64,000 nucleotides of DNA from positions 4,698-68,697 of the forward strand of contig DATDAH010000244.1 in NCBI GenBank assembly GCA_036525535.1, given 5' to 3'. This DNA comes from Acidimicrobiales bacterium (lineage in GTDB: Bacteria; Actinomycetota; Acidimicrobiia; Acidimicrobiales; DATDAH01). The notes under the pieces are model-generated. The model was not told the DNA's origin. It worked only from the letters and a program-made list of their open reading frames with translations, and did no database searches. This document shows, piece after piece, positions 5,203 to 64,000 of this stretch. The number at the start of each line of letters is the position of its first letter. The stretch's first letter is position 1. Both the position numbers and the translations under genes were made by a program.

Positions 5203-7122
5203 ATGTCGCACCAGTCCGAGCTGATCGCCACCGACATCGAGGCGTACCTGGCCGAGCACGAACAGAAGGACCTGCTCCGCTTCCTGACCTGCGGGTCGGT
5301 GGACGACGGCAAGTCGACCCTGATCGGCCGCCTCCTGCACGACTCCCATCTGCTCTACGAGGACCAGTTGGCCGCGGTGGAAGCCGAGTCGACGACCATG
5401 GGGTCCGCCGGCGGTGAGCTGGACCTGGCCCTGCTCATGGACGGCTTGAAGGCCGAGCGGGAGCAGGGCATCACCATCGACGTCGCCTACCGCTACTTCT
5501 CGACCTCGCGGCGCAAGTTCATCATCGCCGACACCCCGGGCCACGAGCAGTACACCCGCAACATGGTCACGGGAGCCTCGACCTGCGATCTGGCCATCAT
5601 CCTGGTGGACGCCCGGCACGGCGTGCAGGCCCAGACCAAGCGCCACAGTTACCTGACCTCGCTCCTCGGCATCGAGAACACGGTCGTGGCCATCAACAAG
5701 ATGGACCTCGTCGACCACTCGAAAGAGCGCTTCGAGGAGATCCGGGACCACTACCTCGAGTTCGCCGAGCGCCTCGACCTGAAGAAGGCGCCGTGGTTCA
5801 TCCCCATCTCCGCCCTGAAGGGCGACTGGGTGGTCGACCCCGGCACGAACATGACCTGGTTCGACGGCCCGACCCTCATGGAGCACCTCGAGACCGTGCC
5901 GGTCACGGTGCCCGAGGACGGCGACCTGCGCTTCCCGGTCCAGCTGGTGCGGCGCCCGGACCTGACCTTTCGGGGCTTCGCCGGCACGGTCGCCTCCGGT
6001 GTCGTCCACCCCGGCGACGAGGTCATGGTCCTGCCCTCAGGCGTGGTCACGACCGTGGATCGCCTGGTCACGTTCAACGGCGACCTCGACGAGGCCGGCC
6101 CCGGCACCGCCCTCACCATGACCTTGACCGACGAGGTCGACGTGTCCCGGGGCGACGTGCTCGTCCACCCCGAGCGCCGGCCGCAACGCAGCCACGAGGT
6201 CGACGCCATGGTCGTGTGGATGAGCGAGACCGACATGGCCCCGGGCAAGGAGTACCTGGTCCAGCAGGCCAACCGGATCGTCCCGGGCCGCATCACCACG
6301 ATGGCCCACCGCATCGACATCAACACCCTCGAGCCCGAGGCCGCCGCCGGCCTGGCCGTCAACGAGATCGGGCGCTGCACGGTCACCTGCGACCAGCAGC
6401 TGCTCTTCGACGCCTACGAGCGCAACCGCACGACGGGCGCGTTCATCCTGGTCGACCGCCTGAGCAACGCCACGATGGCGGCGGGCATGATCCTGCCCCA
6501 GGACTCGGCCTGGGACGTCCAGCCCGACGAGCACCTGCAGCGCCATTTGAGCCAGATCACGGTGGCTGAGCGGGAGAGCCGCTACGGCCAGCGCCCGTGC
6601 ACCGTCCTGCTGACCGGGCTCACGGGGGCCGGGAAGTCGACGACGGCGGTCGCCCTCGAGCGCCGCCTGTTCGACGCCGGCCGAGCGACGTTGCGCATCG
6701 ACGGCGAGGACCTGCGTCTGGGCATGAGCCGCGACCTCGGCTTCAGCGCCCAGGAACGCTCGGAGAACCTGCGCCGCATGGCCGAGGTGGCCCGCCTGGC
6801 CAACGAGTCCGGGATCATCGTGATCGCCGCCTTTGCCGCCCCCAAGGCCGACGTCCGCGACCGGGCCCGGGAGCTGGTCGGCCCCGAGCGCTTCCTGATC
6901 GTCCACCTCGACGCCCCGGTGGAGGTCGCCCGCCAGCGGGATCCCGAGGGCCTCTACGAGGCTGCGGACCGGGGCGAGATCCCGCAGTTCCCCGGCGTCT
7001 CCGCGACCTACGACGTCCCCGAGAACCCGGACCTGACCCTCGACACCGCCACCGTCGACCAGGCCGACAACGTCGAGCGCATCATCGACCTCCTCACCGA
7101 ACGCGGCTTCCTCACCCCCTGA
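5203..7122 (+). CDS. cysNC: bifunctional sulfate adenylyltransferase subunit 1 / adenylylsulfate kinase
   Basis: 639 aa. The N-terminal GTPase-like domain has GSVDDGKST, DTPGHEQY and NKMD. The C-terminal APS kinase domain has the LTGLTGAGKST P-loop. Confidence 0.9.
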   Translation: MSHQSELIATDIEAYLAEHEQKDLLRFLTCGSVDDGKSTLIGRLLHDSHLLYEDQLAAVEAESTTMGSAGGELDLALLMDGLKAEREQGITIDVAYRYFSTSRRKFIIADTPGHEQYTRNMVTGASTCDLAIILVDARHGVQAQTKRHSYLTSLLGIENTVVAINKMDLVDHSKERFEEIRDHYLEFAERLDLKKAPWFIPISALKGDWVVDPGTNMTWFDGPTLMEHLETVPVTVPEDGDLRFPVQLVRRPDLTFRGFAGTVASGVVHPGDEVMVLPSGVVTTVDRLVTFNGDLDEAGPGTALTMTLTDEVDVSRGDVLVHPERRPQRSHEVDAMVVWMSETDMAPGKEYLVQQANRIVPGRITTMAHRIDINTLEPEAAAGLAVNEIGRCTVTCDQQLLFDAYERNRTTGAFILVDRLSNATMAAGMILPQDSAWDVQPDEHLQRHLSQITVAERESRYGQRPCTVLLTGLTGAGKSTTAVALERRLFDAGRATLRIDGEDLRLGMSRDLGFSAQERSENLRRMAEVARLANESGIIVIAAFAAPKADVRDRARELVGPERFLIVHLDAPVEVARQRDPEGLYEAADRGEIPQFPGVSATYDVPENPDLTLDTATVDQADNVERIIDLLTERGFLTP

Positions 7123-7134
7123 CCCGTTCTGGCC
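7123..7134 (+). repeat. stop-proximal CCCGTTCTGGCC motif copy
   Basis: It starts directly after the cysNC TGA. It shares GTTCTGGCC with copies at 30595-30603, 35507-35515 and (minus strand) 30636-30644. Confidence 0.5.
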
Positions 7135-7178
7135 GGTGATCTGGCAGCTATGACGACGAGATCAACGGCTTGACCAGG

Positions 7179-7847
7179 TCAGTCGTCGGGGGCGTCGACG
7201 GTGATGTCGAACGAGGCCAGGAACGCCAGGGCGAACGACACGACCTGATCGGGGCTGAGGACGATGTCGCGCAGGCCGCCGATGCCACCCAGCTCGTGGA
7301 CGGTCGAGCGTTCCAGCCGCAGGGCCGTGACCACGGCCCTCGAGAACTCCGCGCCCGTCAGGTCACACCCGAGGAACCCGGTCCGGCGGACGGTGGCGGC
7401 GTAGAAGTCAGCCCGGCGGAGGTCGCAGTCCAGGAACTCGGCGTGGTCGATCTCCGCCATCCGGAACCAGGCGTCATCGAGGCGATCGTCGACGAAGCTG
7501 ACCTCCTCCGCTTGGAGATCGGCGGTCGAGAGGCCGGACATCCGGCAGTCCTCGAACCGGACCCGCCGGAGCTTCGTCGCGCCCAAGGTCACCCCGGACA
7601 GCTCGCAGCCCACCAAGGTGACGTCCTCGAGGACCAGCCGGTCGAAGGAGGACGCCGTCAACCGCACCCCGTCGAGCCGGCAGCCGGCGAGGGTGAGCCC
7701 GTCGAGCGAGCCCCCGACGAGCTCGCCAGTGAGGAGCGCGTCCTCGACCTCGTCCCCACTGGTCAGGTCGGAGAACGCGACCGCGTCGAGGTCGCCGGCG
7801 ACCTCAGGCGGGTCCACGGGAGCGGGACCGCCCGCGGGCGGGGTCAA
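7179..7847 (-). CDS. pentapeptide repeat-containing protein
   Basis: 222 aa with contiguous pentapeptide repeats over most of the length (…[50 protein letters not shown]…). The start is uncertain: TTG at 7847 or a GTG about 30 nt downstream. Confidence 0.8.
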
Positions 7848-8017
7848 TCGACGGTGATCTGGCCGGTGACGGGGAACTCCTTGCGGACGACGAGGCGGTC
7901 GGTGTCCTCGGCCACCGACTCGTAGCCCAGCTCCGCGTAGCTCTCCTTCACCCCGTCGAGCTGGGTGATGGGGATGTCCACGATGGTGAGGTACTCCCAG
8001 CGCTCCGAGATGTGCAT
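7844..8017 (-). CDS. small hypothetical protein (57 aa), not in ORF track
   Basis: ATG at 8017. Translation is [57 protein letters not shown]. It has GC3-rich codons and a balanced composition unlike shadow ORFs. Its TGA overlaps the TTG start of the pentapeptide gene (TTGA). Confidence 0.45.
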
Positions 8018-8056
8018 GGGGCGAGCGTAGGCACCGCAGGCCTACGCTCGCCCGCC

Positions 8057-8716
8057 GTGAGGCTCGTGATCGCCCGGTGCCAGGTGGACTACGAAGGCCG
8101 GCTCACGGCGCACTTGCCGATGGCCCCCCGCCTGATCATGGTGAAGGCCGACGGGTGCGTCGCCATCCACGCCGACGGCGGCGCGTACAAGCCGCTGAAC
8201 TGGATGAACGCGCCCAACACGCTCGTCGAAGGCGACGGGGTGTGGACCGTGACCAGCCCCAAGGGCGAGCAGCTGATCATCACCATGGAGGAGATCCTGT
8301 CGGATTCGGCCCACGAGCTGGGGATCGACCCGGGCCTGACCAAGGACGGGGTCGAGGCCCATCTCCAGGAGCTGCTGGCCCTCGATTGCAACCGCATCGA
8401 GAACGGGTTCAAGCTCGTCCGTCGGGAGTGGCCGACCGACATCGGCCCGGTCGACCTCCTCTGCCGGGACGCCGACGGGCAAGCCGTGGCCGTGGAGGTC
8501 AAGCGCCGCGGCGAGATCGACGGGGTCGAGCAGCTGTCCCGCTACGTCGAGCGGATGGACCGGGACCCGTCCCTCCGCCCGGTACGCGGCGTCTTCGTCG
8601 CTCAGGTGATCAAGCCACAGGCAAAAGTCCTGGCCGAGTCCCGGGGCATAGCCTGCGTCGAGGTCGACTACGACGAGCTGCGAGGCATCGAGCGCAACGA
8701 GCTGAAGCTGTTCTGA
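8057..8716 (+). CDS. nucS: endonuclease NucS (EndoMS)
   Basis: [33 protein letters not shown]... matches the NucS family N-terminus. The nuclease half contains [24 protein letters not shown] at 8057 is preferred over the ORF-track start at 8012. Confidence 0.85.
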
Positions 8717-8735
8717 CCGGAGAAGGGGGACCGCC

Positions 8736-9296
8736 ATGGCGGACGTGAGGAGCTGGTTGAAGGATGCGGCAGCAGGCTTCGGCTCCTGCCTGGAGGGCGT
8801 GGCCGACGAACAGTGGTCCTCGCCCACCCCCGACGCCGAATGGGACGTGCGGGCGTTGGTGGCCCACGTCGTGGACGAGCAGCTCTGGGCGCCCCCGCTG
8901 CTGGCCGGCCGCACCATCGACGACATCGGTGACGAGATCCCATCGGACCCGTTGGGCGACGACAGCGTCGCCGCCCAGCGCGACGCGACCGCCGCGATGG
9001 TGGACGCCCTGGAGGACCTCGATCTCGACGCCACCGTTCACCTGTCCTTCGGTGACGTGCCGGCCCAGGAGTACCTGATGCAGCTGTTCGCCGACCACCT
9101 GATCCACACGTGGGACCTGGCCCGGGCCACGGGCCAGCCCGAACGGCTGGATCCCGAGCTGGTGGCCGTGTGTGCCACCTGGTTCGTCGGACGGGAGGAC
9201 CTCTACCGCCAGAGCGGGGCCATCGGCCCGGCCGTGACCGTCGAGGGCGGCGACGCCCAGTCCGAGCTCCTGGGCCGCTTCGGCCGGCGCCCCTAG
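8736..9296 (+). CDS. DinB/MDMPI_N-like metal-binding protein (TIGR03086-like)
   Basis: 186 aa with W..PTP..EWDVRALVAHVVDE... and DHLIHTWDLARA, the pattern of actinobacterial mycothiol-maleylpyruvate-isomerase N-terminal-domain proteins. Confidence 0.6.
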   Translation: MADVRSWLKDAAAGFGSCLEGVADEQWSSPTPDAEWDVRALVAHVVDEQLWAPPLLAGRTIDDIGDEIPSDPLGDDSVAAQRDATAAMVDALEDLDLDATVHLSFGDVPAQEYLMQLFADHLIHTWDLARATGQPERLDPELVAVCATWFVGREDLYRQSGAIGPAVTVEGGDAQSELLGRFGRRP

Positions 9297-54045: not shown

Positions 54046-54638
54046 GCGTGACCCTGGTCGTGCTGGTCGGCAGCGGCGTGGTGCTGGTCGGCTGGATCTG
54101 GGCCTCCTACAACCGCTTCGCGCTGCAGCGGGAGATGGTGGAGAACTCCTGGTCCACCGTCGACACCGAGCTGCGGCGGCGCTACGACCTCATCCCGAAC
54201 CTGGTCGCCACCGTGAAGGGTTACGCCGCCCACGAGCGCGAGACGCTGGAAACCGTGGTCGAGGCCCGGAGCCAGGCCGTCGCCGCCACTGGGGCCCCGG
54301 AGGAGCAGGCCCCTGCCGAAAATCTGCTGGTGGACGGGCTGAAGCAGCTGTTCGCCGTGGCTGAGGCCTACCCCGACCTGAAGGCCGACGTCCACTTCCT
54401 GGAGCTCCAGAAGGAGCTGGCCGCCACCGAGAACCGCATCCAGGCCGCCCGGCGCATCTTCAACGGCAACGTCCGGGACCTCAACCGGCGCGTTCAGCAG
54501 GTGCCGTCGAACCTCGTCGCCAAGGTCGGTGGCTTCCACCGGGCCGAGTACTTCCAGATCGACGCCGCCGCCCGCGCGGTGCCCGTCGCGTCGCTGGCGC
54601 CGGACCTGCCGAGCGAAGCGAAGCCAGTCAAAAGTTGA
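54042..54638 (+). CDS. lemA: LemA family protein
   Basis: 198 aa with an N-terminal TM span and the LemA core YNRFALQREMVENSWSTVDTELRRRYDLIPNLV...AENRIQAARRIFN. Confidence 0.8.
   Translation: MSVTLVVLVGSGVVLVGWIWASYNRFALQREMVENSWSTVDTELRRRYDLIPNLVATVKGYAAHERETLETVVEARSQAVAATGAPEEQAPAENLLVDGLKQLFAVAEAYPDLKADVHFLELQKELAATENRIQAARRIFNGNVRDLNRRVQQVPSNLVAKVGGFHRAEYFQIDAAARAVPVASLAPDLPSEAKPVKS
54596..54630 (-). repeat. dispersed intergenic repeat, copy C (block 1)
   Basis: The reverse complement TGACTGGCTTCGCTTCGCTCGGCAGGTCCGGCGCC is 31/35 identical to copy A. It begins at the TGA of the minus-strand ACAD gene and lies inside the 3' tail of the lemA ORF. Confidence 0.7.
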
Positions 54639-55809
54639 TCGGGTTCCCGTCGCGGGACTGTTTGAGGATGCGTCTCGCGACCGTGTGGACGTGGACCTCG
54701 TCGGGGCCGTCGTAGATCCGGGCGAAGCGGGCCGAGCGGTACATGAAGCTGAGCGGCGTGTCGTCGGTCAGGCCCTTGGCCCCGTGGGCCTGGATCGCCC
54801 GGTCGATGACGTTGTGCAGCATCCGGGCCCCGACCACCTTGATGGTGCCGATCTCCACCCGGGCCTGGTCGCCGGCGTCGATGCGCTCCGCGGCCTGGAG
54901 GGTGAGCAGGCGGCAGGCCTGGATCTCGGCGTAGGACTCGAACACGTGCTGCTGCATGAGCTGCTTGTGCGACAGCGGTTCGCCGAAGGCCACCCGCGCG
55001 TTCAGCCGCTCGCAGAGCAGCTCGAAGGCCCGCTGGGCCTGCCCCAGCCACCGCATGCAGTGGAAGATCCGCCCGGGGCCCAGCCGGTCCTGGGCGATCT
55101 GGAAGCCGTGCCCCCGGGGGCCGAGGAGGTTGCCGGCCGGCACCCGCACGTCGGTGTAGCGGACCTCGCAGTGCCCACCCTTGATGCCCAACACCGGCGT
55201 CTCCCTGACGATCTGGTAGCCAGACGTGTCGGTCGGGACCACGATCATCGAGAAGGCGCGGTGGTCCGGGGCGTCGGGCTCGGTCCGGCACATGACCGTC
55301 GTGTAGGCCGCCCGGTTGGCCCCCGTCGTGAACCACTTCAGGCCGTTGATGACCCACTCCTCGCCGTCGAGCACGGCGGCGGTCTGGAGCTGGGTGGGAT
55401 CCGACGACGCCACCTCGGGCTCCGTCATGGCGAAGCTGGGCGAGATCTCGGCCGCCACCAGGGGGGCGAGGTAGCGCTCCCGCCACTCGGGGCTGGCGTA
55501 CTTGTCCAGCATCAGGGAGTCCTGGAGGGTGAAGGTGCCGAGGGCGAGCTGGCCGAACTCGCTGCGGCCCTGGACCTCGTTGACGTAGACGTAGTCCAGG
55601 AAGGGCAGGCCCCCGCCGCCCAGCTCGGCCGGGTGCCCGAGGGCCCACAGGCCCTCGGCCTTGGCCTCGGCCTGCAGTTCCCGCAGCAGGTCGCGGGCGG
55701 CCTCGTCGCCGGCGTGGAGCTCCGGTTCGGCGGGCTCGACCCGCTCCCGCATGAACGCCTCCACGGCCGCTCGCACCGGCCGCACATGTTCGGGCACCTC
55801 GAAGCTCAT
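54628..55809 (-). CDS. acyl-CoA dehydrogenase family protein
   Basis: The start is trimmed to MSFEVPEHVRPV. It contains AMTEPEVASSDPTQL and C-terminal IYDGPDEVHVHTVARRIL. GGAGGAG lies just upstream. Confidence 0.85.
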   Translation of the reverse strand: MSFEVPEHVRPVRAAVEAFMRERVEPAEPELHAGDEAARDLLRELQAEAKAEGLWALGHPAELGGGGLPFLDYVYVNEVQGRSEFGQLALGTFTLQDSLMLDKYASPEWRERYLAPLVAAEISPSFAMTEPEVASSDPTQLQTAAVLDGEEWVINGLKWFTTGANRAAYTTVMCRTEPDAPDHRAFSMIVVPTDTSGYQIVRETPVLGIKGGHCEVRYTDVRVPAGNLLGPRGHGFQIAQDRLGPGRIFHCMRWLGQAQRAFELLCERLNARVAFGEPLSHKQLMQQHVFESYAEIQACRLLTLQAAERIDAGDQARVEIGTIKVVGARMLHNVIDRAIQAHGAKGLTDDTPLSFMYRSARFARIYDGPDEVHVHTVARRILKQSRDGNPINF

Positions 55810-55810
55810 C

Positions 55811-56920
55811 TCACTCCTCCTGTTCGACGGACGTGGGTCGCCGCGGACGACGGAACCTGAGCCGGGGCAGGTCGCCCATGCGGTCCGAGGACCACAGGGC
55901 GGGGGGCGGCTGCACCAGCGCACACAGCTCGAGCAGCACCCGGTCGTAGTTGACCCGCCAGCCGGCGAAGTCCCGCCAACACTGATCCCGGTCCGGCTTC
56001 AGCGGGACCCCGGCGGCGCGGAGCTGCTCGTAGACGCCGTCGAACTCGGCCTTGTGGATCGAGATCGGGTCCGTGGGTTGGGGTCGCCGCTCGTGGTGGA
56101 TCCCGAAGAAGTCGGCGATGGCCCGCAGGGCGAGATAGCCCGACCGGATGGTCAGCTCGGCTCTCGCCTGGCGCGGGATGTCGAGGGTGGAGGACCGCAG
56201 GGCGGCCGCGTCGAGGACCGCCCCCGCCCCGGTGAGCCAGGAGCGGTGGTCGTCGATGGAGCGGAAGTGGACCAGCGCCGGATAGGTGGTGTGGCTCTCC
56301 TCGAGCTCGACGAACCAGTCCTCCCAGTCCGGCCACATGTCGTCGAGCTGCTCGAGCCGCTCGAGGCGGTGGTGCCGGATGAACATCTCGGCGGGCGTCG
56401 GCGGGGTGCCCGCCCGGCTGGAGAGCTTGGCCACCAGGTGCTCCCGGCGGGAGAAGTGGCCGTACATCGTGGGCAGGAAGCTGATGAGCAGGGCGACCAG
56501 GCCCAGGCCGATGACCGCCTCGACCACGGCGGCGCCCAGCGGCGGGCCCTCGTTGGGGCGGGAGAAGCCCAGCGTGGTGACCGACGAACCGGACAGCACG
56601 AACTCCTCGCCGATGGGGTCGGCACCGAGGGCCCAGTAGATGGGCACGAACCCGATCATCACCCCGGTCACCCAGGCCAAGGGCATCAGCATCAGGGTCG
56701 TGGGGCCGTAGCGGGCCCGGATCGCCTCCCGCCGGGTCACGGTGCGGGCGCGGCAGGCGAAGAACTCGAACGGCCGGCGGACCACCACGAAGAGGACCCG
56801 GGTGAGCCACACCTGCTCGGGCCGCGGCACCACCACGGTCCACACCGCGGCCCGCACCACCCAGAGCACGACCGACGCGCCGGCGGCGAACGCCAGGAGC
56901 TGGACCGCGAAACTCGCCAT
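55811..56920 (-). CDS. membrane protein with K+-channel-like pore module (degenerate filter) and large cytoplasmic domain
   Basis: 369 aa with a TM - pore-helix-like - TM arrangement around EEFVLSGSSVTTLGFSRPNEG. A soluble domain of roughly 200 residues follows. The stop is 1 nt from the ACAD start. Confidence 0.55.
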   Translation of the reverse strand: MASFAVQLLAFAAGASVVLWVVRAAVWTVVVPRPEQVWLTRVLFVVVRRPFEFFACRARTVTRREAIRARYGPTTLMLMPLAWVTGVMIGFVPIYWALGADPIGEEFVLSGSSVTTLGFSRPNEGPPLGAAVVEAVIGLGLVALLISFLPTMYGHFSRREHLVAKLSSRAGTPPTPAEMFIRHHRLERLEQLDDMWPDWEDWFVELEESHTTYPALVHFRSIDDHRSWLTGAGAVLDAAALRSSTLDIPRQARAELTIRSGYLALRAIADFFGIHHERRPQPTDPISIHKAEFDGVYEQLRAAGVPLKPDRDQCWRDFAGWRVNYDRVLLELCALVQPPPALWSSDRMGDLPRLRFRRPRRPTSVEQEE

Positions 56921-56947
56921 GCGCGCCGGAGCGTAACGGCGGGGCTG

Positions 56948-57952
56948 CTACTCCTCGGCGAGGTCAGGCATGAGGGAGAGGGTGAAGGCGCCGGAGCGGA
57001 AGGCGACGATCACGGCGCCGACACCGACACCGAGGGCCAGCGCGGTGACCAGGCGCTCGAAGGCGAACGGGACGTCTGTCGGGAGCACCGGGTTCGACAG
57101 CACCGCGAGCCGGAACACGCCCCAGGTGGCCAGGAACACCCCGCCGGCGAGTAGCCCGACCGTGCGTAGGCGTTCGACGAGCACCGCCACGAGGGCGAGG
57201 ACCACCGCGACGAGGGCGACCACGACGGGCACGATCGAGGCCCCGGTGCCGGAGGGCAGGCTGGTGTAGCCCACCCACGCCACGCCCGCGGCGAGCAGGC
57301 CGACGACGAGGACCAGGACGGCGGGCACCCGGTCGGGCAGCCGTGTCCCCCAGACGCCGAGCGCCACCAGGACCAGCAGGGCCAGGGCGAACCACGGGAT
57401 CGGCGACACCGTCCCCTCGTAGCGAATCACGCCCGAGACGACGATCGGCTGACCATCGACCTCGATCGGGAGCGTCCAATCGAGGGTTCCGCCTGCTGGA
57501 CGCTCACCGCCCATGAAGTGGGTCCGGTGATCGTGCCACGCGTAGGAACCGCCCGAGGACACGACCTGCTCCCAGTCGGGTTCGAGCGTGGTCGCATCGA
57601 CCCCTTGCAGGTTGTCGGGGGCCAGCGCGTTCGTGCCGTACCGAGCGGCATTGATGTAGGTCGCCGGTGAGTTTCGGTTCTGCTCGACGCTTCCGTCGGC
57701 GTTGAACCGGAGGTAGGGCTCCCCTTCGTAGCCCTCGACGACCGCCGCGTGCCCGTTCTCGACCGTGAGTGCGATGAAGGCGTCACCCCCCGCGGTCTCG
57801 ACGGTGAAGCCGGCGGGGTCCGGCTCGATGGAGGTGACCTCCGACGAGTAGCTCCCCGGCTTGGCCGCGTCGGCGGCGGCCGGGCCGGCCCCGAGGACCA
57901 GCCCGACCACCGCCAGGGTCACCGCACGACAGGCGACGGCCCGGGCGCTCAT
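56948..57952 (-). CDS. secreted/membrane hypothetical protein, last gene of copCD-ycnI string
   Basis: 334 aa with a signal-like N-terminus and an extracytoplasmic domain carrying YAWHDHRTHFMGG. About five C-terminal hydrophobic spans follow. No family recognised. Confidence 0.6.
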   Translation of the reverse strand: MSARAVACRAVTLAVVGLVLGAGPAAADAAKPGSYSSEVTSIEPDPAGFTVETAGGDAFIALTVENGHAAVVEGYEGEPYLRFNADGSVEQNRNSPATYINAARYGTNALAPDNLQGVDATTLEPDWEQVVSSGGSYAWHDHRTHFMGGERPAGGTLDWTLPIEVDGQPIVVSGVIRYEGTVSPIPWFALALLVLVALGVWGTRLPDRVPAVLVLVVGLLAAGVAWVGYTSLPSGTGASIVPVVVALVAVVLALVAVLVERLRTVGLLAGGVFLATWGVFRLAVLSNPVLPTDVPFAFERLVTALALGVGVGAVIVAFRSGAFTLSLMPDLAEE

Positions 57953-57956
57953 GGCG

Positions 57957-58613
57957 TCAGGATGCCTGACGGGAGCTCATCACGGCGTAGCCGCCGACAA
58001 GCAGGCCGACGGCCCCGACGATCAGGGCCACGACCGCCAGGCTGTCGCTGCTGCTGTCGTCGCTGCTGATCGTGGCCGTCGCCACGTCGTCGGCGTGCTC
58101 GTCCTCCTCCGCGCCCTCCTCGCCGTGGGTGTGCTCACCGTCGGACTCGGTCAGCGCAACGGCGGGGGCGGGGTGCTCCGGCTCCTCGCCCCCCTCGGGC
58201 GTCTCCTCGATCCAGGACACCTCGTCCCCGCTCTCGCAGGTCTGGATCGTCGGGAACAGCACGGTCTCACCCGGCGTGTCCGGCATCGGCACCGACAGGC
58301 CGAACTCCATGAACTGGTCGTGGGGCAGCGGGCCACCCTCCCAGGTCACGACGACCGGGCCGGCGTCGTCCACCGTCGCCGCCCAGCCGGGGAGGAACTG
58401 GGGTGTGGCCGACTCGACGCCGTCGGGCAGCTGGACCTCGAGCTTCACGGTGCCGGTGTCGTCCTCACAGCCGTGGGGGACGACGAGGGCGAAGGTCACG
58501 AACCCCCCGGCCGGCGCCTCCTCGACGGTGGGCTCGATGTGGGCCCACGCCGGGGCGGCCGGCCCGACGAGCAGGACGCCCGCGCCAGCCAGCACGGTCA
58601 ACAGCTTCTTCAT
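57957..58613 (-). CDS. ycnI: YcnI family (DUF1775) copper-binding protein
   Basis: The start is trimmed to MKKLLTVLAGAGVLLVGPAAPAWAHIEPTVEEAPAGGFVTFALVVPHGC. It has an acidic/His-rich tail and a C-terminal TM anchor. Confidence 0.75.
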   Translation of the reverse strand: MKKLLTVLAGAGVLLVGPAAPAWAHIEPTVEEAPAGGFVTFALVVPHGCEDDTGTVKLEVQLPDGVESATPQFLPGWAATVDDAGPVVVTWEGGPLPHDQFMEFGLSVPMPDTPGETVLFPTIQTCESGDEVSWIEETPEGGEEPEHPAPAVALTESDGEHTHGEEGAEEDEHADDVATATISSDDSSSDSLAVVALIVGAVGLLVGGYAVMSSRQAS

Positions 58614-58645
58614 GACACTCCCTTGGTTTGGATCATGGACAACGC

Positions 58646-60268
58646 TCAGCCCCCGACGAGGACCTCGACCTCGCCGGTCGCCGACTCGAAGCGGGAGATG
58701 TCGGCCGTCACCTGAATGGTCCACCGACCACCGGTGACGAGCTCGTTCCCGTCGATCTGAAAGTGAGCGGGGCCGGCCCGGAAGGGCTCCCGCACGATGG
58801 GGCCGATGTCGTCGGACGGCAGCGACAGGCTGACGCTGACGTCGTCGGCGATCTCCGCCGACCGGCCGTCCTCGTCGAAGAAGTAGAGGTGGATGGCGTT
58901 GCGGCCCGCCTGATTCGGGTCGACGACGATGTTCACCGAGCCGGCGTCCCCGAGGGCCACGGTCTCGCTGAAGATCTCGCCGATGCCCGCGGCACTGCGG
59001 GCCGGGGTGACGTTCACGAGCACGGCGGTGAGGGCGATGGCCACGACGAGAGCCGCGGCCTCGAGGCGGACGCTCTTGCGGAGCAACGACCAGGCCCGAG
59101 TGGCCGACGGCGAGCGTCGGATGGCGGGGACGACCCGGAACCGGTTGTGGGCCCCGATGAGGCCGACGACCAGGACCACGCCGACCTTGGCCAGCAGCGT
59201 CCAGCCGTAGGCGGTGGAGGTCAGCGCCCGCAGGGCCCGGACCTCGGACCAGGACAGAGCGACCCCGGCGGCACCGACGGCGAGGACGCAGACCGTGGCC
59301 ACCCGGGAGAAGCGGCCCACCATCCCGGCCGAAGACGTGTGGTCATCCTCGTCGCGGCGACCCCAAAGGACCACGGCCAGGAGCACGAGGCCGCCGAACC
59401 ACACGGCGGCGGTCACGGTGTGGACGATCCCCGCGCTCACCGCGAGGAGCTCGTCGTCGGTGCTGCGGGTGTGGCCGCTGAGGGCGAACGAACCGGCCGC
59501 GAGCAGCACGCCGGCTCCGATCCCCGCCCGGCGCGTCCCCCCGAGCACGAGCAGCACCAAGCCGAGCAGGCCGAGGAACGTGGCCAGGCCCACCCCCTCC
59601 TGCAGGACCTCGCCCAGCACGCCGTCCTGGGTGATGGCGTCGAAGCCCTGGCCCGTGCCCAGCGCGGCCTGGATCGGGAGCGCGGCCAGGATCCCCACGG
59701 CGCCGACGACCGCCGCGCGGCGGACGAGGCGCCGCAGACGGTCCTCCTCGGGCCCGCGGTCGTGGACGAAGGACAGGAAGAAGGCGCCACCCGCGGCCAG
59801 CAACACGCCGGCGTAGGCCAGGAAGCGGAAGACGACGCCGGCGATCTCCCAGGCCCGATCCGAGCCCTCGTCGAAGAACTGGCTGATCAGCGCCGGGTCG
59901 GCCTGGACGTCGCCGACGCTGAAGACCAGGCCGCCCTGGACCGGATGCCCGTCGTCGGACACGACCCGGTAGGTGGCGACGTACGCGCCGTCGGCCAGGT
60001 CGTCCTGCAGGTCGACGGCGACCACCTCGCCGTCCGCGCGCGTCTCGCCGACGTCGACCCGGTCACCGTTGGCCGAGAACACCCGTAGCCCACCCAGATC
60101 CGCCGACACGGGCTCGTTGAACTCGAGACGGACGCTCTCAGGTGGGGTGTCGAGGCGGGCGCCGTCGCCCGGGGTCGACGCCTCCAGGACGGCGTGGGCC
60201 GACGCCGGGGCGGCACCGAGCAGGAGGAGCGCCGCGACCAGGGCCGCGGCTGCGAGCAGTCGCCTCAC
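58646..60268 (-). CDS. CopC-CopD fusion copper resistance/transport protein with C-terminal Ig-like domain
   Basis: 540 aa with a signal and the CopC domain AHAVLEASTPGDGARLDTPPESVRLEFNEPV. A multi-span CopD-like region and a soluble C-terminal domain follow. Confidence 0.8.
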   Translation of the reverse strand: MRRLLAAAALVAALLLLGAAPASAHAVLEASTPGDGARLDTPPESVRLEFNEPVSADLGGLRVFSANGDRVDVGETRADGEVVAVDLQDDLADGAYVATYRVVSDDGHPVQGGLVFSVGDVQADPALISQFFDEGSDRAWEIAGVVFRFLAYAGVLLAAGGAFFLSFVHDRGPEEDRLRRLVRRAAVVGAVGILAALPIQAALGTGQGFDAITQDGVLGEVLQEGVGLATFLGLLGLVLLVLGGTRRAGIGAGVLLAAGSFALSGHTRSTDDELLAVSAGIVHTVTAAVWFGGLVLLAVVLWGRRDEDDHTSSAGMVGRFSRVATVCVLAVGAAGVALSWSEVRALRALTSTAYGWTLLAKVGVVLVVGLIGAHNRFRVVPAIRRSPSATRAWSLLRKSVRLEAAALVVAIALTAVLVNVTPARSAAGIGEIFSETVALGDAGSVNIVVDPNQAGRNAIHLYFFDEDGRSAEIADDVSVSLSLPSDDIGPIVREPFRAGPAHFQIDGNELVTGGRWTIQVTADISRFESATGEVEVLVGG

Positions 60269-60867
60269 CGGGCGAGGACCGGCTGGGTCGCACGGGCATC
60301 GTCATCGCGGTGGGCCAGGAGCCAGAGCAGGGCCACGCCGGCCACCTCGAGCAGGTGGACGGCTTCACCGGCCCCGGCGGTCGCCCCCGAGATGATGTCG
60401 ACCAGGGCCCCGAGGCTCAGGACCCCCGCCACAACGAGCCCCAGCGGGAGCATCCCCCGGGCCCGGGCGGGCTGCCAGGCGGCGACGAGGAGCCCGACGG
60501 CCAGAGCCGCGGACCAGCTTCCCAGCTCGCGGGTCGTGTGCACGGCTTCACCGCTCGGGCCGGTCAGCAACGACGGAAGGGCGATGACGAGCTGAGCCAG
60601 GGCGACGACCACGAGGCTCCATCGGGCGGCCTCCCGCCGGGGGTCGCGGCGCACGGGCGGGTTGGCGGCCATGACGGCGCCGGCGAGGTCGGGGACGGGC
60701 TCAGCCGGCGTCAGGCGGGTGACCCGGTCGAGGGCCGTGAGCGAGGAGGCGAAGTCGGTGCAGGCGGCACAGCTGGCAAGATGACGGTCCAGCACGGCCA
60801 GTTCGTCGGCCGTGGCCTCACCGTCCAGCCGGGCGGACAGCACATCTCGACTCTGATCACAACGCAT
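60265..60867 (-). CDS. zf-HC2 anti-sigma factor with polytopic membrane domain
   Basis: 200 aa with the N-terminal HLASCAAC zinc-finger anti-sigma motif. About four hydrophobic spans follow. A GTGA overlap links it to copCD. Confidence 0.7.
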   Translation of the reverse strand: MRCDQSRDVLSARLDGEATADELAVLDRHLASCAACTDFASSLTALDRVTRLTPAEPVPDLAGAVMAANPPVRRDPRREAARWSLVVVALAQLVIALPSLLTGPSGEAVHTTRELGSWSAALAVGLLVAAWQPARARGMLPLGLVVAGVLSLGALVDIISGATAGAGEAVHLLEVAGVALLWLLAHRDDDARATQPVLAR

Positions 60868-60876
60868 GCCCTACCT

Positions 60877-60902
60877 GTCGAACCAACCCCCCATCTGGTT
60901 CC
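60877..60902 (-). promoter_or_regulatory. candidate ECF-type promoter (GGAAC-N17-CGAC) with embedded inverted repeat
   Basis: The minus strand reads GGGAACCAGATGGGGGGTTGGTTCGAC followed by AGGTAGGGC and ATG. It contains GAACCA-N10-TGGTTC (60880-60901). Confidence 0.35.
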
Positions 60903-60917
60903 CGGCATGGGCCCGAG

Positions 60918-61460
60918 ATGCCTGACGACCAGCTGACCGAACTGGCCCGACAGGCCGTCGGTGGTGACCGGGTGGCGCTGTCCGACCTCGTCCGGGGCAC
61001 GCAGGCCGACGTGTGGCGGCTGTGCGCCCACCTCGTCGACCGCCAGAGTGCCGACGACCTGACCCAGGACGTCTACGCCCGGGCCATCACCGGCCTCCCC
61101 CACTTCCGGGGGGAGCGCCCGGTGCGCCTCTGGCTCCTCGGCATCGCCCGCCACGTCTGCATCGACGAGGTCCGCCGCCGGACCCGCGGCCGACGGATCC
61201 TGGCCCGCAACGAGGTCGAGGCCATCGAGACGCTCGCCGACCCGACCGGGGTCGTCGACCTCGACGAGCTGCTGGCCGGCCTCGACCCCGATCAGCGCGC
61301 CGCATTCGTCCTGACCCAGGTCCTGGGCCTGCGCTACGCCGAAGCGGCCGAGGCCGTGGGCTGCCCCGTCGGCACCATCCGCAGCCGCGTCGCCCGCGCC
61401 CGTCAACACCTCGTCGCCGCCGTCGCCGCCCCCGCCGAATCCAACCGTTGTGGAACCTGA
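60918..61460 (+). CDS. ECF-type RNA polymerase sigma-70 family factor
   Basis: 180 aa with a region 2 pattern (DLTQDVYARA...W.LGIARHVCIDEVRRR) and a region 4 HTH (LRYAEAAEAVGCPVGTIRSRVARAR). Confidence 0.85.
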   Translation: MPDDQLTELARQAVGGDRVALSDLVRGTQADVWRLCAHLVDRQSADDLTQDVYARAITGLPHFRGERPVRLWLLGIARHVCIDEVRRRTRGRRILARNEVEAIETLADPTGVVDLDELLAGLDPDQRAAFVLTQVLGLRYAEAAEAVGCPVGTIRSRVARARQHLVAAVAAPAESNRCGT

Positions 61461-61510
61461 AACTCGCGCCCCGTCACCGACGACAGGTCCCAGAACGATC
61501 GGGGGGGTGG

Positions 61511-64000
<2,490 letters not shown>

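Follow-up and report, generated by a model that had tools for sequence, protein, structure and literature searches.

The 64-kb window analyzed here (64,000 nucleotides of contig DATDAH010000244.1 from an Acidimicrobiales bacterium, assembly GCA_036525535.1) carries a gene for an extracytoplasmic function (ECF) sigma factor that resembles SigC and, divergent from it, a gene for a predicted membrane-bound anti-sigma factor that heads an operon of copper-handling genes. We propose that this SigC-type sigma factor and its presumed cognate anti-sigma factor constitute a homeostatic switch for copper acquisition, a reading to which we assign a probability of about 0.55. The SigC/ECF36 group of sigma factors and the class I zinc anti-sigma domain were already known; what appears to be new is a SigC-type sigma/anti-sigma system with an undescribed four-helix domain as putative sensor, together with a copper-uptake operon, probably transcribed without a leader, in which the anti-sigma gene comes first. 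The sensing of copper shortage in bacteria is poorly understood, and SigC has been tied to copper starvation and virulence in Mycobacterium tuberculosis and to adaptation of the respiratory chain in Corynebacterium glutamicum.

The sigma gene (60918-61460, plus strand; 180 amino acids, aa) and the anti-sigma gene (60265-60867, minus strand; 200 aa) are separated by a spacer of exactly 50 bp (60868-60917). The anti-sigma gene is followed on the minus strand by genes for a YcnJ-like CopC-CopD fusion, CopCD (58646-60268; 540 aa; Pfam CopC 1.8e-22, CopD 7.5e-21), for YcnI (57957-58616; DUF1775 5.6e-33, 114.8 bits against a cut-off of 25), and for a 334-aa membrane protein, here called mem334 (56948-57952), without a Pfam or NCBIfam match. 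At 60265-60268 the plus strand reads tcac, which is GTGA on the minus strand, where GTG is the start codon of copCD and TGA the stop codon of the anti-sigma gene. The gap between copCD and ycnI is 29 nucleotides (nt), and that between ycnI and mem334 is 4 nt. A first-pass annotation of this DNA had described the divergent pair with its 50-bp spacer, the order of the four minus-strand genes and the GTGA overlap, and the Pfam matches, coordinates and stop/start letters agreed with it in each respect. The window is actinobacterial DNA with a GC content of about 72%, its nearest relatives are metagenome-assembled genomes (MAGs) of Microthrixaceae (Acidimicrobiia), and the reading frames at the locus are backed by codon-position GC.

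The sigma factor has the two domains of an ECF protein, with Pfam matches to Sigma70_r2 at residues 24-90 (3.7e-13) and to Sigma70_r4_2 at residues 114-165 (3.2e-17), that is sigma2 and sigma4 without region 3, as in SigC/ECF36. Its top NCBIfam matches were PRK12535 (1.2e-47) and then SigC, PRK09649 (3.6e-42); these two were ahead of other families by about 20 orders of magnitude, the third family being found at 1.6e-23. Among the PDB sequences, the best match to sigma2 alone was the sigma2 domain of M. tuberculosis SigC (2o7g, 5.7e-20), which was also the top match overall, and the best match to sigma4 alone was the sigma4 domain of the same protein (2o8x, 1.3e-15). Since the top families and the single-domain PDB chains are those of SigC while the scores lie below curated cut-offs, given below, the protein is best classed from its sequence as SigC-like and not as a demonstrated orthologue of SigC. 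In M. tuberculosis, SigC acts against copper starvation (PMC7924339), and the sigma-C regulon of C. glutamicum is activated by copper deprivation (PMC7337898).

The divergent gene product had been read in the first-pass annotation as a zf-HC2 anti-sigma factor with the motif HLASCAAC, embedded in the membrane by four hydrophobic spans, and both parts of this description held. Pfam placed zf-HC2 at residues 3-36 (37.6 bits, cut-off 22.2). The zinc motif is H29-x3-C33-x2-C36 with C3 upstream, and its Hx3Cx2C part spans helices 2 and 3; H29, C33 and C36 were invariant in 84 sequences and C3 was near-invariant, and there is no Cys beyond residue 36. An AlphaFold model with the 84 sequences as input (predicted local distance difference test, pLDDT, 89.4) contained N-terminal helices at 3-14, 20-32, 34-50 and 61-68, with pLDDT >90, and then long helices at 76-101, 108-131, 133-160 and 165-194, where Kyte-Doolittle analysis gave hydrophobic spans at about 82-103, 115-131, 140-160 and 170-186. 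In a Foldseek search the N-terminal domain was matched to the cytoplasmic domain of MucA in its complex with AlgU (probability 1.0, template-modelling score 0.63 on the target, at a non-significant E of 0.57), and the sequence match to RsiW was weak (E 0.39). The protein is thus predicted, from sequence and model, to join a class I zinc-binding (zf-HC2/ZAS) domain (residues 1-70; 60658-60867, minus strand) to a four-helix membrane bundle (residues 76-194; 60286-60642, minus strand), the latter being the proposed sensor. Since the anti-sigma domain has to lie in the cytoplasm, the loop QPARARGMLP, with two Arg and no acidic residue, is also placed inside and the loops at about 104-116 and 160-171 are placed outside. 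The membrane domain matched no Pfam family even at E<=10, and the comparison of the four-helix bundle with the PDB returned generic helical bundles and no significant fold match. Used alone as the query, the membrane domain retrieved 886 cluster representatives (E<=0.001), almost all of them about 200 aa long with the same architecture, and a word-indexed search with the full anti-sigma factor retrieved 429 homologues. The longer members of the family have zf-HC2 only, without sigma domains.

Polar residues of the membrane domain were strongly conserved among 127 representatives. H171 (60355-60357, minus strand) was present in all of them, as was P133; H110 (60538-60540, minus strand) was present in 126, D157 (60397-60399, minus strand) in 123 and E168 (60364-60366, minus strand) in 119. 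Position 114, which is E in the window, was E, H or D, and position 113 was R or H. According to the helix boundaries and the topology, H110, position 114, D157, E168 and H171 are all located 2-9 residues from the outer ends of transmembrane helices (TM) 2-4, and the conserved membrane residues share single helical faces, with i/i+3 or i/i+4 spacing, a pattern of the kind expected of a metal-ion site. The exchange of E, H and D at position 114 is typical for a metal ligand. We propose that H110, E114, D157, E168 and H171 form a metal site, presumably for copper, on the outer face of the membrane; it is from these conserved ligand-type residues that we infer a metal-responsive anti-sigma factor. 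The first-pass annotation had remarked that the pentapeptide GEAVH occurs twice beside the hydrophobic spans. Both copies are present, at 106-110 and 167-171, but the repeat as such does not exceed chance, since 13.6% of shuffled anti-sigma sequences, which are rich in Ala, Leu, Val and Gly, hold some repeated 5-mer; the first copy is conserved in relatives only at its His, and what does exceed chance is the conservation of the two His residues. An internal duplication of TM1-2 and TM3-4, considered on account of this repeat, was rejected (hhalign probability 1.7%).

These residues also bear on a different view of the protein, in which the zinc-cysteine motif is a cytoplasmic thiol or redox switch like that of RsrA and the membrane domain is a mere anchor. 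Such a switch would fit the conservation of C3, H29, C33 and C36 and a weak NCBIfam match to the mycothiol-system anti-sigma-R factor RsrA (5.5e-05), but that match scored 23 bits against a cut-off of 62.5. Some zinc-motif anti-sigma domains need no zinc to bind their sigma factor, and in others the motif is missing entirely (PMC7406223); moreover, a mere anchor would not be expected to hold five polar residues near-invariant in 127 divergent representatives. We consider a thiol switch of this kind very improbable.

A genome scan found 76 loci, 66 of them with a full-length match to the anti-sigma factor, and it is to these 66 that the locus counts refer. They span Microthrixaceae, Iamiaceae, Ilumatobacteraceae, Actinokineospora, Longispora, Saccharopolyspora, Nitriliruptoraceae, Solirubrobacterales and others. 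Neighbourhoods were counted by tblastn, since ad hoc gene calling lost many genes in frameshifted long-read MAGs. A SigC-like sigma gene was adjacent to the anti-sigma gene in 62 loci, divergent in 60 and upstream in the same direction in 2, and it is this adjacency that supports the proposed binding and inhibition of the sigma factor by the anti-sigma factor. CopCD was directly downstream of the anti-sigma gene in 32 loci and within 6 kb in 38; YcnI was encoded within 6 kb in 22 loci. More often than any other gene, that of mem334 accompanied the pair, within 6 kb in 41 loci. At least one of CopCD, YcnI, Sco1 and a cupredoxin-like protein was encoded within 6 kb in 49 of the 66, and where CopCD was absent its place was usually taken by Sco1, cytochrome c, a cupredoxin-like protein or mem334. 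The first-pass annotation had named a lack of co-conservation of the pair with copCD and ycnI in relatives as one finding that would refute its reading, and these counts do not refute it.

The spacer between the two genes, read on the minus strand (ccGGGAACCagatggggggttggtTCGACaggtagggcATG), contains the promoter motif GGGAACC-N16-TCGAC nine bases ahead of the anti-sigma ATG (60877-60903, minus strand). The -35 element GGGAAC occupies 60898-60903 and, after a gap of 17 nt, the -10 element CGAC occupies 60877-60880, from which it is 9 nt to the ATG at 60867. The sigma-C consensus of C. glutamicum, which was defined experimentally, is GGGAACT at -35 and CGACTA at -10 (PMC5483222), and the spacer motif fits it. 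The core sequence GGAAC-N16-18-CGAC was found beside the anti-sigma start in 57 of the 66 loci, with a gap of 17 nt in 53 of the 57 and with CGAC 9-10 nt from the start codon in 48; the background rate of this core is 0.0056 matches per 100 nt. Even in two Saccharopolyspora loci (L057 and L059), in which the sigma gene lies upstream on the same strand, the motif is still found ahead of the anti-sigma gene. Such conservation of the presumed target site suggests that GGGAAC(T) / CGAC(TA) is recognized by the sigma factor. Since the distance from the motif to the ATG is short and constant, the mRNA of the anti-sigma operon is predicted to be leaderless or near-leaderless. That the anti-sigma gene is wired to the copper genes, as surmised in the first-pass annotation, is thus borne out in two ways, by translational coupling to copCD and by a sigma-C-type promoter ahead of the anti-sigma gene. 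In the window, the strict motif GGGAACY-N15-17-CGAC had a single match, which was the anti-sigma promoter site. A relaxed motif gave 6 matches where 4.0 were expected and so added no regulon members here, and the variant GGAAC-N16-18-CGACYA gave none.

No sigma-C-type motif was seen ahead of the sigma gene when the spacers of related loci were inspected. Among the window and loci L001-L030, many have a sigma start codon that lies 36-50 nt from the anti-sigma start and directly against the -35 element, so that the sigma promoter must overlap either the anti-sigma promoter or its coding region, and RNA polymerase at the sigma-C-type promoter could interfere with transcription of the sigma gene. 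The layout looks like one in which the anti-sigma gene depends on the sigma factor, giving negative feedback, without positive autoregulation of the sigma gene.

Two further features of this promoter region were recorded. The 17 nt between its elements (60881-60897, minus strand; cagatGGGGGGttgg) include a run of six G, which is kept in the window and in loci L002-L006 and not in distant loci, and the -35 and -10 regions of the window form an inverted repeat, GAACCA ... TGGTTC. The G run or the inverted repeat could be the site of a second regulator or could reflect mere shared descent.

In the related loci the motif was also found ahead of other genes. In Ilumatobacteraceae-type loci the sigma gene is followed by genes for cytochrome c (9.6e-11), Sco1/SenC (1.8e-25), a cupredoxin-like lipoprotein (a weak match, 0.004) and mem334, and the cytochrome c-Sco1 block has a strict sigma-C-type motif of its own, which comes right after the sigma gene and about 10 nt ahead of the start codon where this could be called (minus strand, at about 7331 in L040, 7301 in L043, 7225 in L065, 3176 in L032 and 2151 in L045). 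This block looks like an operon for delivery of copper to cytochrome oxidase under the same sigma factor. The strict motif was found ahead of PepSY_TM genes (7.7e-71) at about 7263 (minus strand) in L057, about 7114 (minus strand) in L059 and 1568 (plus strand) in L064. These genes resemble C. glutamicum cg2556, a proven sigma-C target, and in L064 a DUF5134 gene comes next. The strict motif also stood ahead of a YcnI gene in related loci.

Separately, the Actinokineospora auranticolor locus (L038, 2940-5074) holds four strict motifs in about 2.2 kb, against about one per 68 kb elsewhere. Around them lie genes for a FecCD permease, a methyltransferase, an enzyme dependent on pyridoxal phosphate and an ATP-grasp amino-acid ligase. 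Possibly these genes make up a metallophore cluster controlled by a SigC-type factor, which recalls M. tuberculosis SigC and the nrp chalkophore operon.

Several observations weigh against our proposal. One strict promoter match in 64 kb is not significant alone, as 0.71 would be expected; the weight of the motif lies in its position and conservation and not in the lone match in the window. The sigma gene's own promoter was not found, either in a sigma-70-type search of 54400-61700 or as a conserved -10 element on the sigma strand of the spacer. The sigma factor scored below the NCBIfam equivalog cut-off for SigC (PRK09649, 144.3 bits against 219) and below that for PRK12535 (162.1 against 290). 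A metagenomic protein of 805 aa (P0197) holds zf-HC2, the four-helix domain, CopC and CopD, with a weak FixH-like match at its C-terminus, in one polypeptide; as a natural fusion of the anti-sigma factor with CopCD it would speak for the copper link, but a frameshift where stop and start overlap could produce it too. The signal itself is read wholly from sequence and context. Finally, 11 of the 66 loci had none of CopCD, YcnI, Sco1, a cupredoxin-like protein, cytochrome c, mem334 or PepSY_TM within 6 kb, and ECF pairs are very common, so that this might be an ordinary envelope-stress pair with copper genes adjacent by chance. We find that hardly credible, given that the association recurs in Acidimicrobiia, Actinokineospora, Longispora, Nitriliruptoraceae and Solirubrobacterales, that the same promoter motif stands ahead of other copper genes, and that the sigma factor is of a type with a documented role in copper starvation.

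The products of the operon point to copper uptake. In CopCD the Pfam matches are to CopC at residues 25-118 and to CopD at 316-417, and the NCBIfam family copper_CopD matches 143-422 (1.3e-30). The last 116 aa (58649-58996, minus strand) matched a YtkA-like profile weakly (E 0.17, with 8-84 of its 85 positions aligned), which hints at the three-domain architecture of YcnJ, whose importance for oxidase assembly in Bacillus subtilis was recently shown. YcnI, a copper-binding protein, has a predicted signal peptide; its N-terminus reads MKKLLTVLAGAGVLLVGPAAPAWA-HIEP, with a predicted mature start at HIEPT, and a ribosome-binding site, AAGGGAG, stands ahead of the ycnI ATG. When copper is limiting in B. 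subtilis, YcnJ (CopC-CopD-YtkA) and YcnI help to sustain growth and the function of the oxidases (PMC13344008). It is because YcnJ/YcnI, M. tuberculosis SigC and C. glutamicum sigma-C all serve copper limitation that we read the locus as a switch for copper acquisition.

The circuit might instead answer copper excess, with copper at the outer site freeing the sigma factor and CopC, CopD and YcnI acting in sequestration or resistance. CopC and CopD are indeed annotated for copper resistance (Pfam PF05425, 'Copper resistance protein D'), and the direction of the switch is not readable from sequence. However, targeted queries and cluster annotation of the neighbourhoods, which are partly annotated, revealed neither an efflux ATPase nor CopZ, CsoR or a multicopper oxidase; the companions found (YcnJ-like CopCD, YcnI, Sco1, cytochrome c) belong to import or cuproenzyme assembly. 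As YcnJ and YcnI act under copper limitation and the SigC relatives respond to copper starvation, a response to excess seems improbable.

The fourth gene product, mem334, was modelled by AlphaFold (pLDDT 91.5) with an extracytoplasmic beta domain ahead of five TM helices. It has a conserved motif, WHDHRTHxM, in which W139, D141 and R143 are invariant and H140, H142, H145 and M147 near-invariant, and this W139-H140-D141-H142-R143-x-H145-x-M147 arrangement suggests a metal site. A fold search against the PDB gave nothing significant for mem334. The fold match to the copper-binding LaX325 was weak and untrustworthy, and when its profile was compared with PDB sequences nothing came up beyond short, spurious alignments with designed beta-trefoils.

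Starting from the observed gene order, domains, topology, conservation of the pair, promoter match and association with copper genes, the copper-acquisition switch would work as follows. Residues 1-70 of the anti-sigma factor would hold the sigma factor at the membrane, while the outer-face site of H110, E114, D157, E168 and H171 would report the extracytoplasmic copper supply. When copper is scarce the site would be empty, and the anti-sigma factor would be inactivated, through a conformational change or regulated proteolysis, and release the sigma factor. The released sigma factor would then read GGGAAC-N17-CGAC in the 50-bp spacer, and a leaderless mRNA would be made for the anti-sigma factor, the YcnJ-like CopCD importer, YcnI and the His-rich mem334. 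New anti-sigma factor, produced in step with CopCD by virtue of the GTGA overlap, would together with restored copper turn the response off. Binding between sigma and anti-sigma factor, copper as the ligand, starvation and not excess as the signal, the manner of inactivation and the leaderless start are the parts of this scheme that we infer from the sequences.

A more far-reaching suggestion is that the anti-sigma family is the missing anti-SigC, and that its four-helix domain binds copper directly at the outer His/Asp/Glu site and thereby governs how many Actinomycetota respond to copper starvation. We offer this tentatively, as somewhat less than an even chance. The anti-sigma factor might on the other hand bind no copper and read copper status indirectly, by contact with CopCD, YcnI or mem334 or through the respiratory or heme state, perhaps with its two His residues ligating heme. 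Consistent with indirect sensing are the translational coupling of the anti-sigma gene to copCD, the joining of anti-sigma factor and CopCD in P0197, and the rank of mem334 as commonest companion; in addition, disturbed heme a insertion likewise activates the C. glutamicum sigma-C regulon (PMC7337898), and invariant His residues on two separate TM helices could make a bis-His heme site. Yet about half of the loci have no CopCD nearby and the conserved residues persist, and D157, E168 and the E, H or D at position 114 suit a metal-ion site more than a heme pocket. On balance we think indirect sensing doubtful.

Several known systems resemble parts of the proposed copper-acquisition switch. The closest are those of SigC (ECF36) and sigma-C, which share with the window the nearest sigma factor, by profile and by solved domains, the GGGAACT/CGACTA promoter and a role in copper supply for respiration. 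The M. tuberculosis sigC gene is not auto-regulated (PMC7924339), and likewise only the anti-sigma gene has the motif here. Unlike those systems, the one described here has a dedicated membrane anti-sigma factor encoded beside the sigma gene, and its targets are CopCD and YcnI, whereas SigC and sigma-C act on nrp/ctpB or cydABDC. The authors who described SigC in M. tuberculosis write that they know of no anti-SigC factor, and they raise the question of how copper deficiency is sensed (PMC7924339). The first-pass annotation recognized no characterized sigma/anti-sigma pair with this layout; literature searches found no described anti-SigC or CopD-linked ECF pair. The sigma half of the pair, which that annotation had not recognized as SigC-like, belongs to a characterized group linked to copper starvation. 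Homologues in Mycobacterium and Corynebacterium, sought with a Mycobacteriales MAG member as query, gave 20 matches that were uninformative.

For SigC (ECF36) a conformational mechanism has been proposed, and some ECF36 members carry a fused anti-sigma extension of 3-4 TM helices plus DUF2275 (PMC8999054). Within the M. avium complex, sigC forms a fusion with a gene for an Rv0093c-like protein that bears an anti-sigma signature (PMC7563442). Such fusions, like the window locus, combine a SigC-type sigma factor with a polytopic membrane protein that has an anti-sigma signature, but they form one polypeptide where the genes here are separate and divergent. DUF2275 was not matched at E<=10 in the window anti-sigma factor or in four relatives. 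The sigma-F/NrsF pair of Caulobacter crescentus is like our proposal in that a polytopic, metal-responsive anti-sigma factor with conserved residues predicted to face the periplasm keeps its sigma factor at the membrane (PMC3511200). In architecture the two are unrelated: NrsF has six TM segments and two key cysteines, its N-terminus of 25 residues holds no class I zinc domain, it responds to chromium and cadmium stress, and its gene follows sigF in the same transcript (PMC3511200). The protein described here, by comparison, has four TM helices, a full zinc anti-sigma domain and conserved His, Asp and Glu residues, its gene is divergent, and its predicted targets are copper-uptake genes.

The output genes are the same as in the ycnKJI operon of B. 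subtilis, a CopC-CopD importer (YcnJ) and YcnI that serve the respiratory oxidases (PMC13344008, PMC8424229). Control of ycnKJI is by the copper-dependent repressor YcnK, whereas here it would be by an ECF sigma factor and an anti-sigma factor encoded as the first gene of the operon. An anti-sigma gene with its own sigma-dependent promoter is also found in the SigH/RshA system of C. glutamicum, for which the authors suggest a rapid shut-off after stress (PMC5483222). RshA, unlike the anti-sigma factor of the window, is soluble, is encoded downstream of sigH and also co-transcribed with it, and senses thiol stress.

The locus and its approximately 65 relatives provide a SigC-like sigma factor with an obvious partner, a defined promoter, candidate ligand residues and an output operon of known function. 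If the family is indeed the missing anti-SigC and binds copper directly, the four-helix domain would represent a novel type of metal-sensing domain, it would be the first sensor of a lack, as opposed to an excess, of copper to be defined that acts through an ECF sigma factor, and the system would serve as a template in the search for the SigC sensor of mycobacteria and corynebacteria. Two uncharacterized families are flagged for copper biology, namely the four-helix domain, which has about 900 representatives but is absent from Pfam, and the His-rich mem334. Nothing is overturned by these findings; the question of the SigC sensor is made testable by simple experiments.

Beyond the operon described above, scans of the surrounding DNA added little: an Rfam scan of the whole window gave 0 matches, and a search for terminators across 54400-61700 yielded none that were useful. 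A gene for a DNA polymerase III alpha-type protein runs convergent to the sigma gene. On the other side, 27 nt beyond mem334, lies a gene for a 369-aa protein (55811-56920, minus strand) without a Pfam match, followed on the same strand by an acyl-CoA dehydrogenase gene. A GC3 of 0.96 supports the 369-aa gene as real. It is found in that position only in the window and in L002, the dehydrogenase gene following directly elsewhere, and its product is probably a passenger and not a conserved member of the operon. The close relative L001 holds the sigma and anti-sigma genes a second time, in fragmented form, at 6517-8986, and all that is left there of CopCD and YcnI are short remnants, which lie on the opposite strand; this copy is either a local rearrangement or an artefact of long-read MAG assembly.

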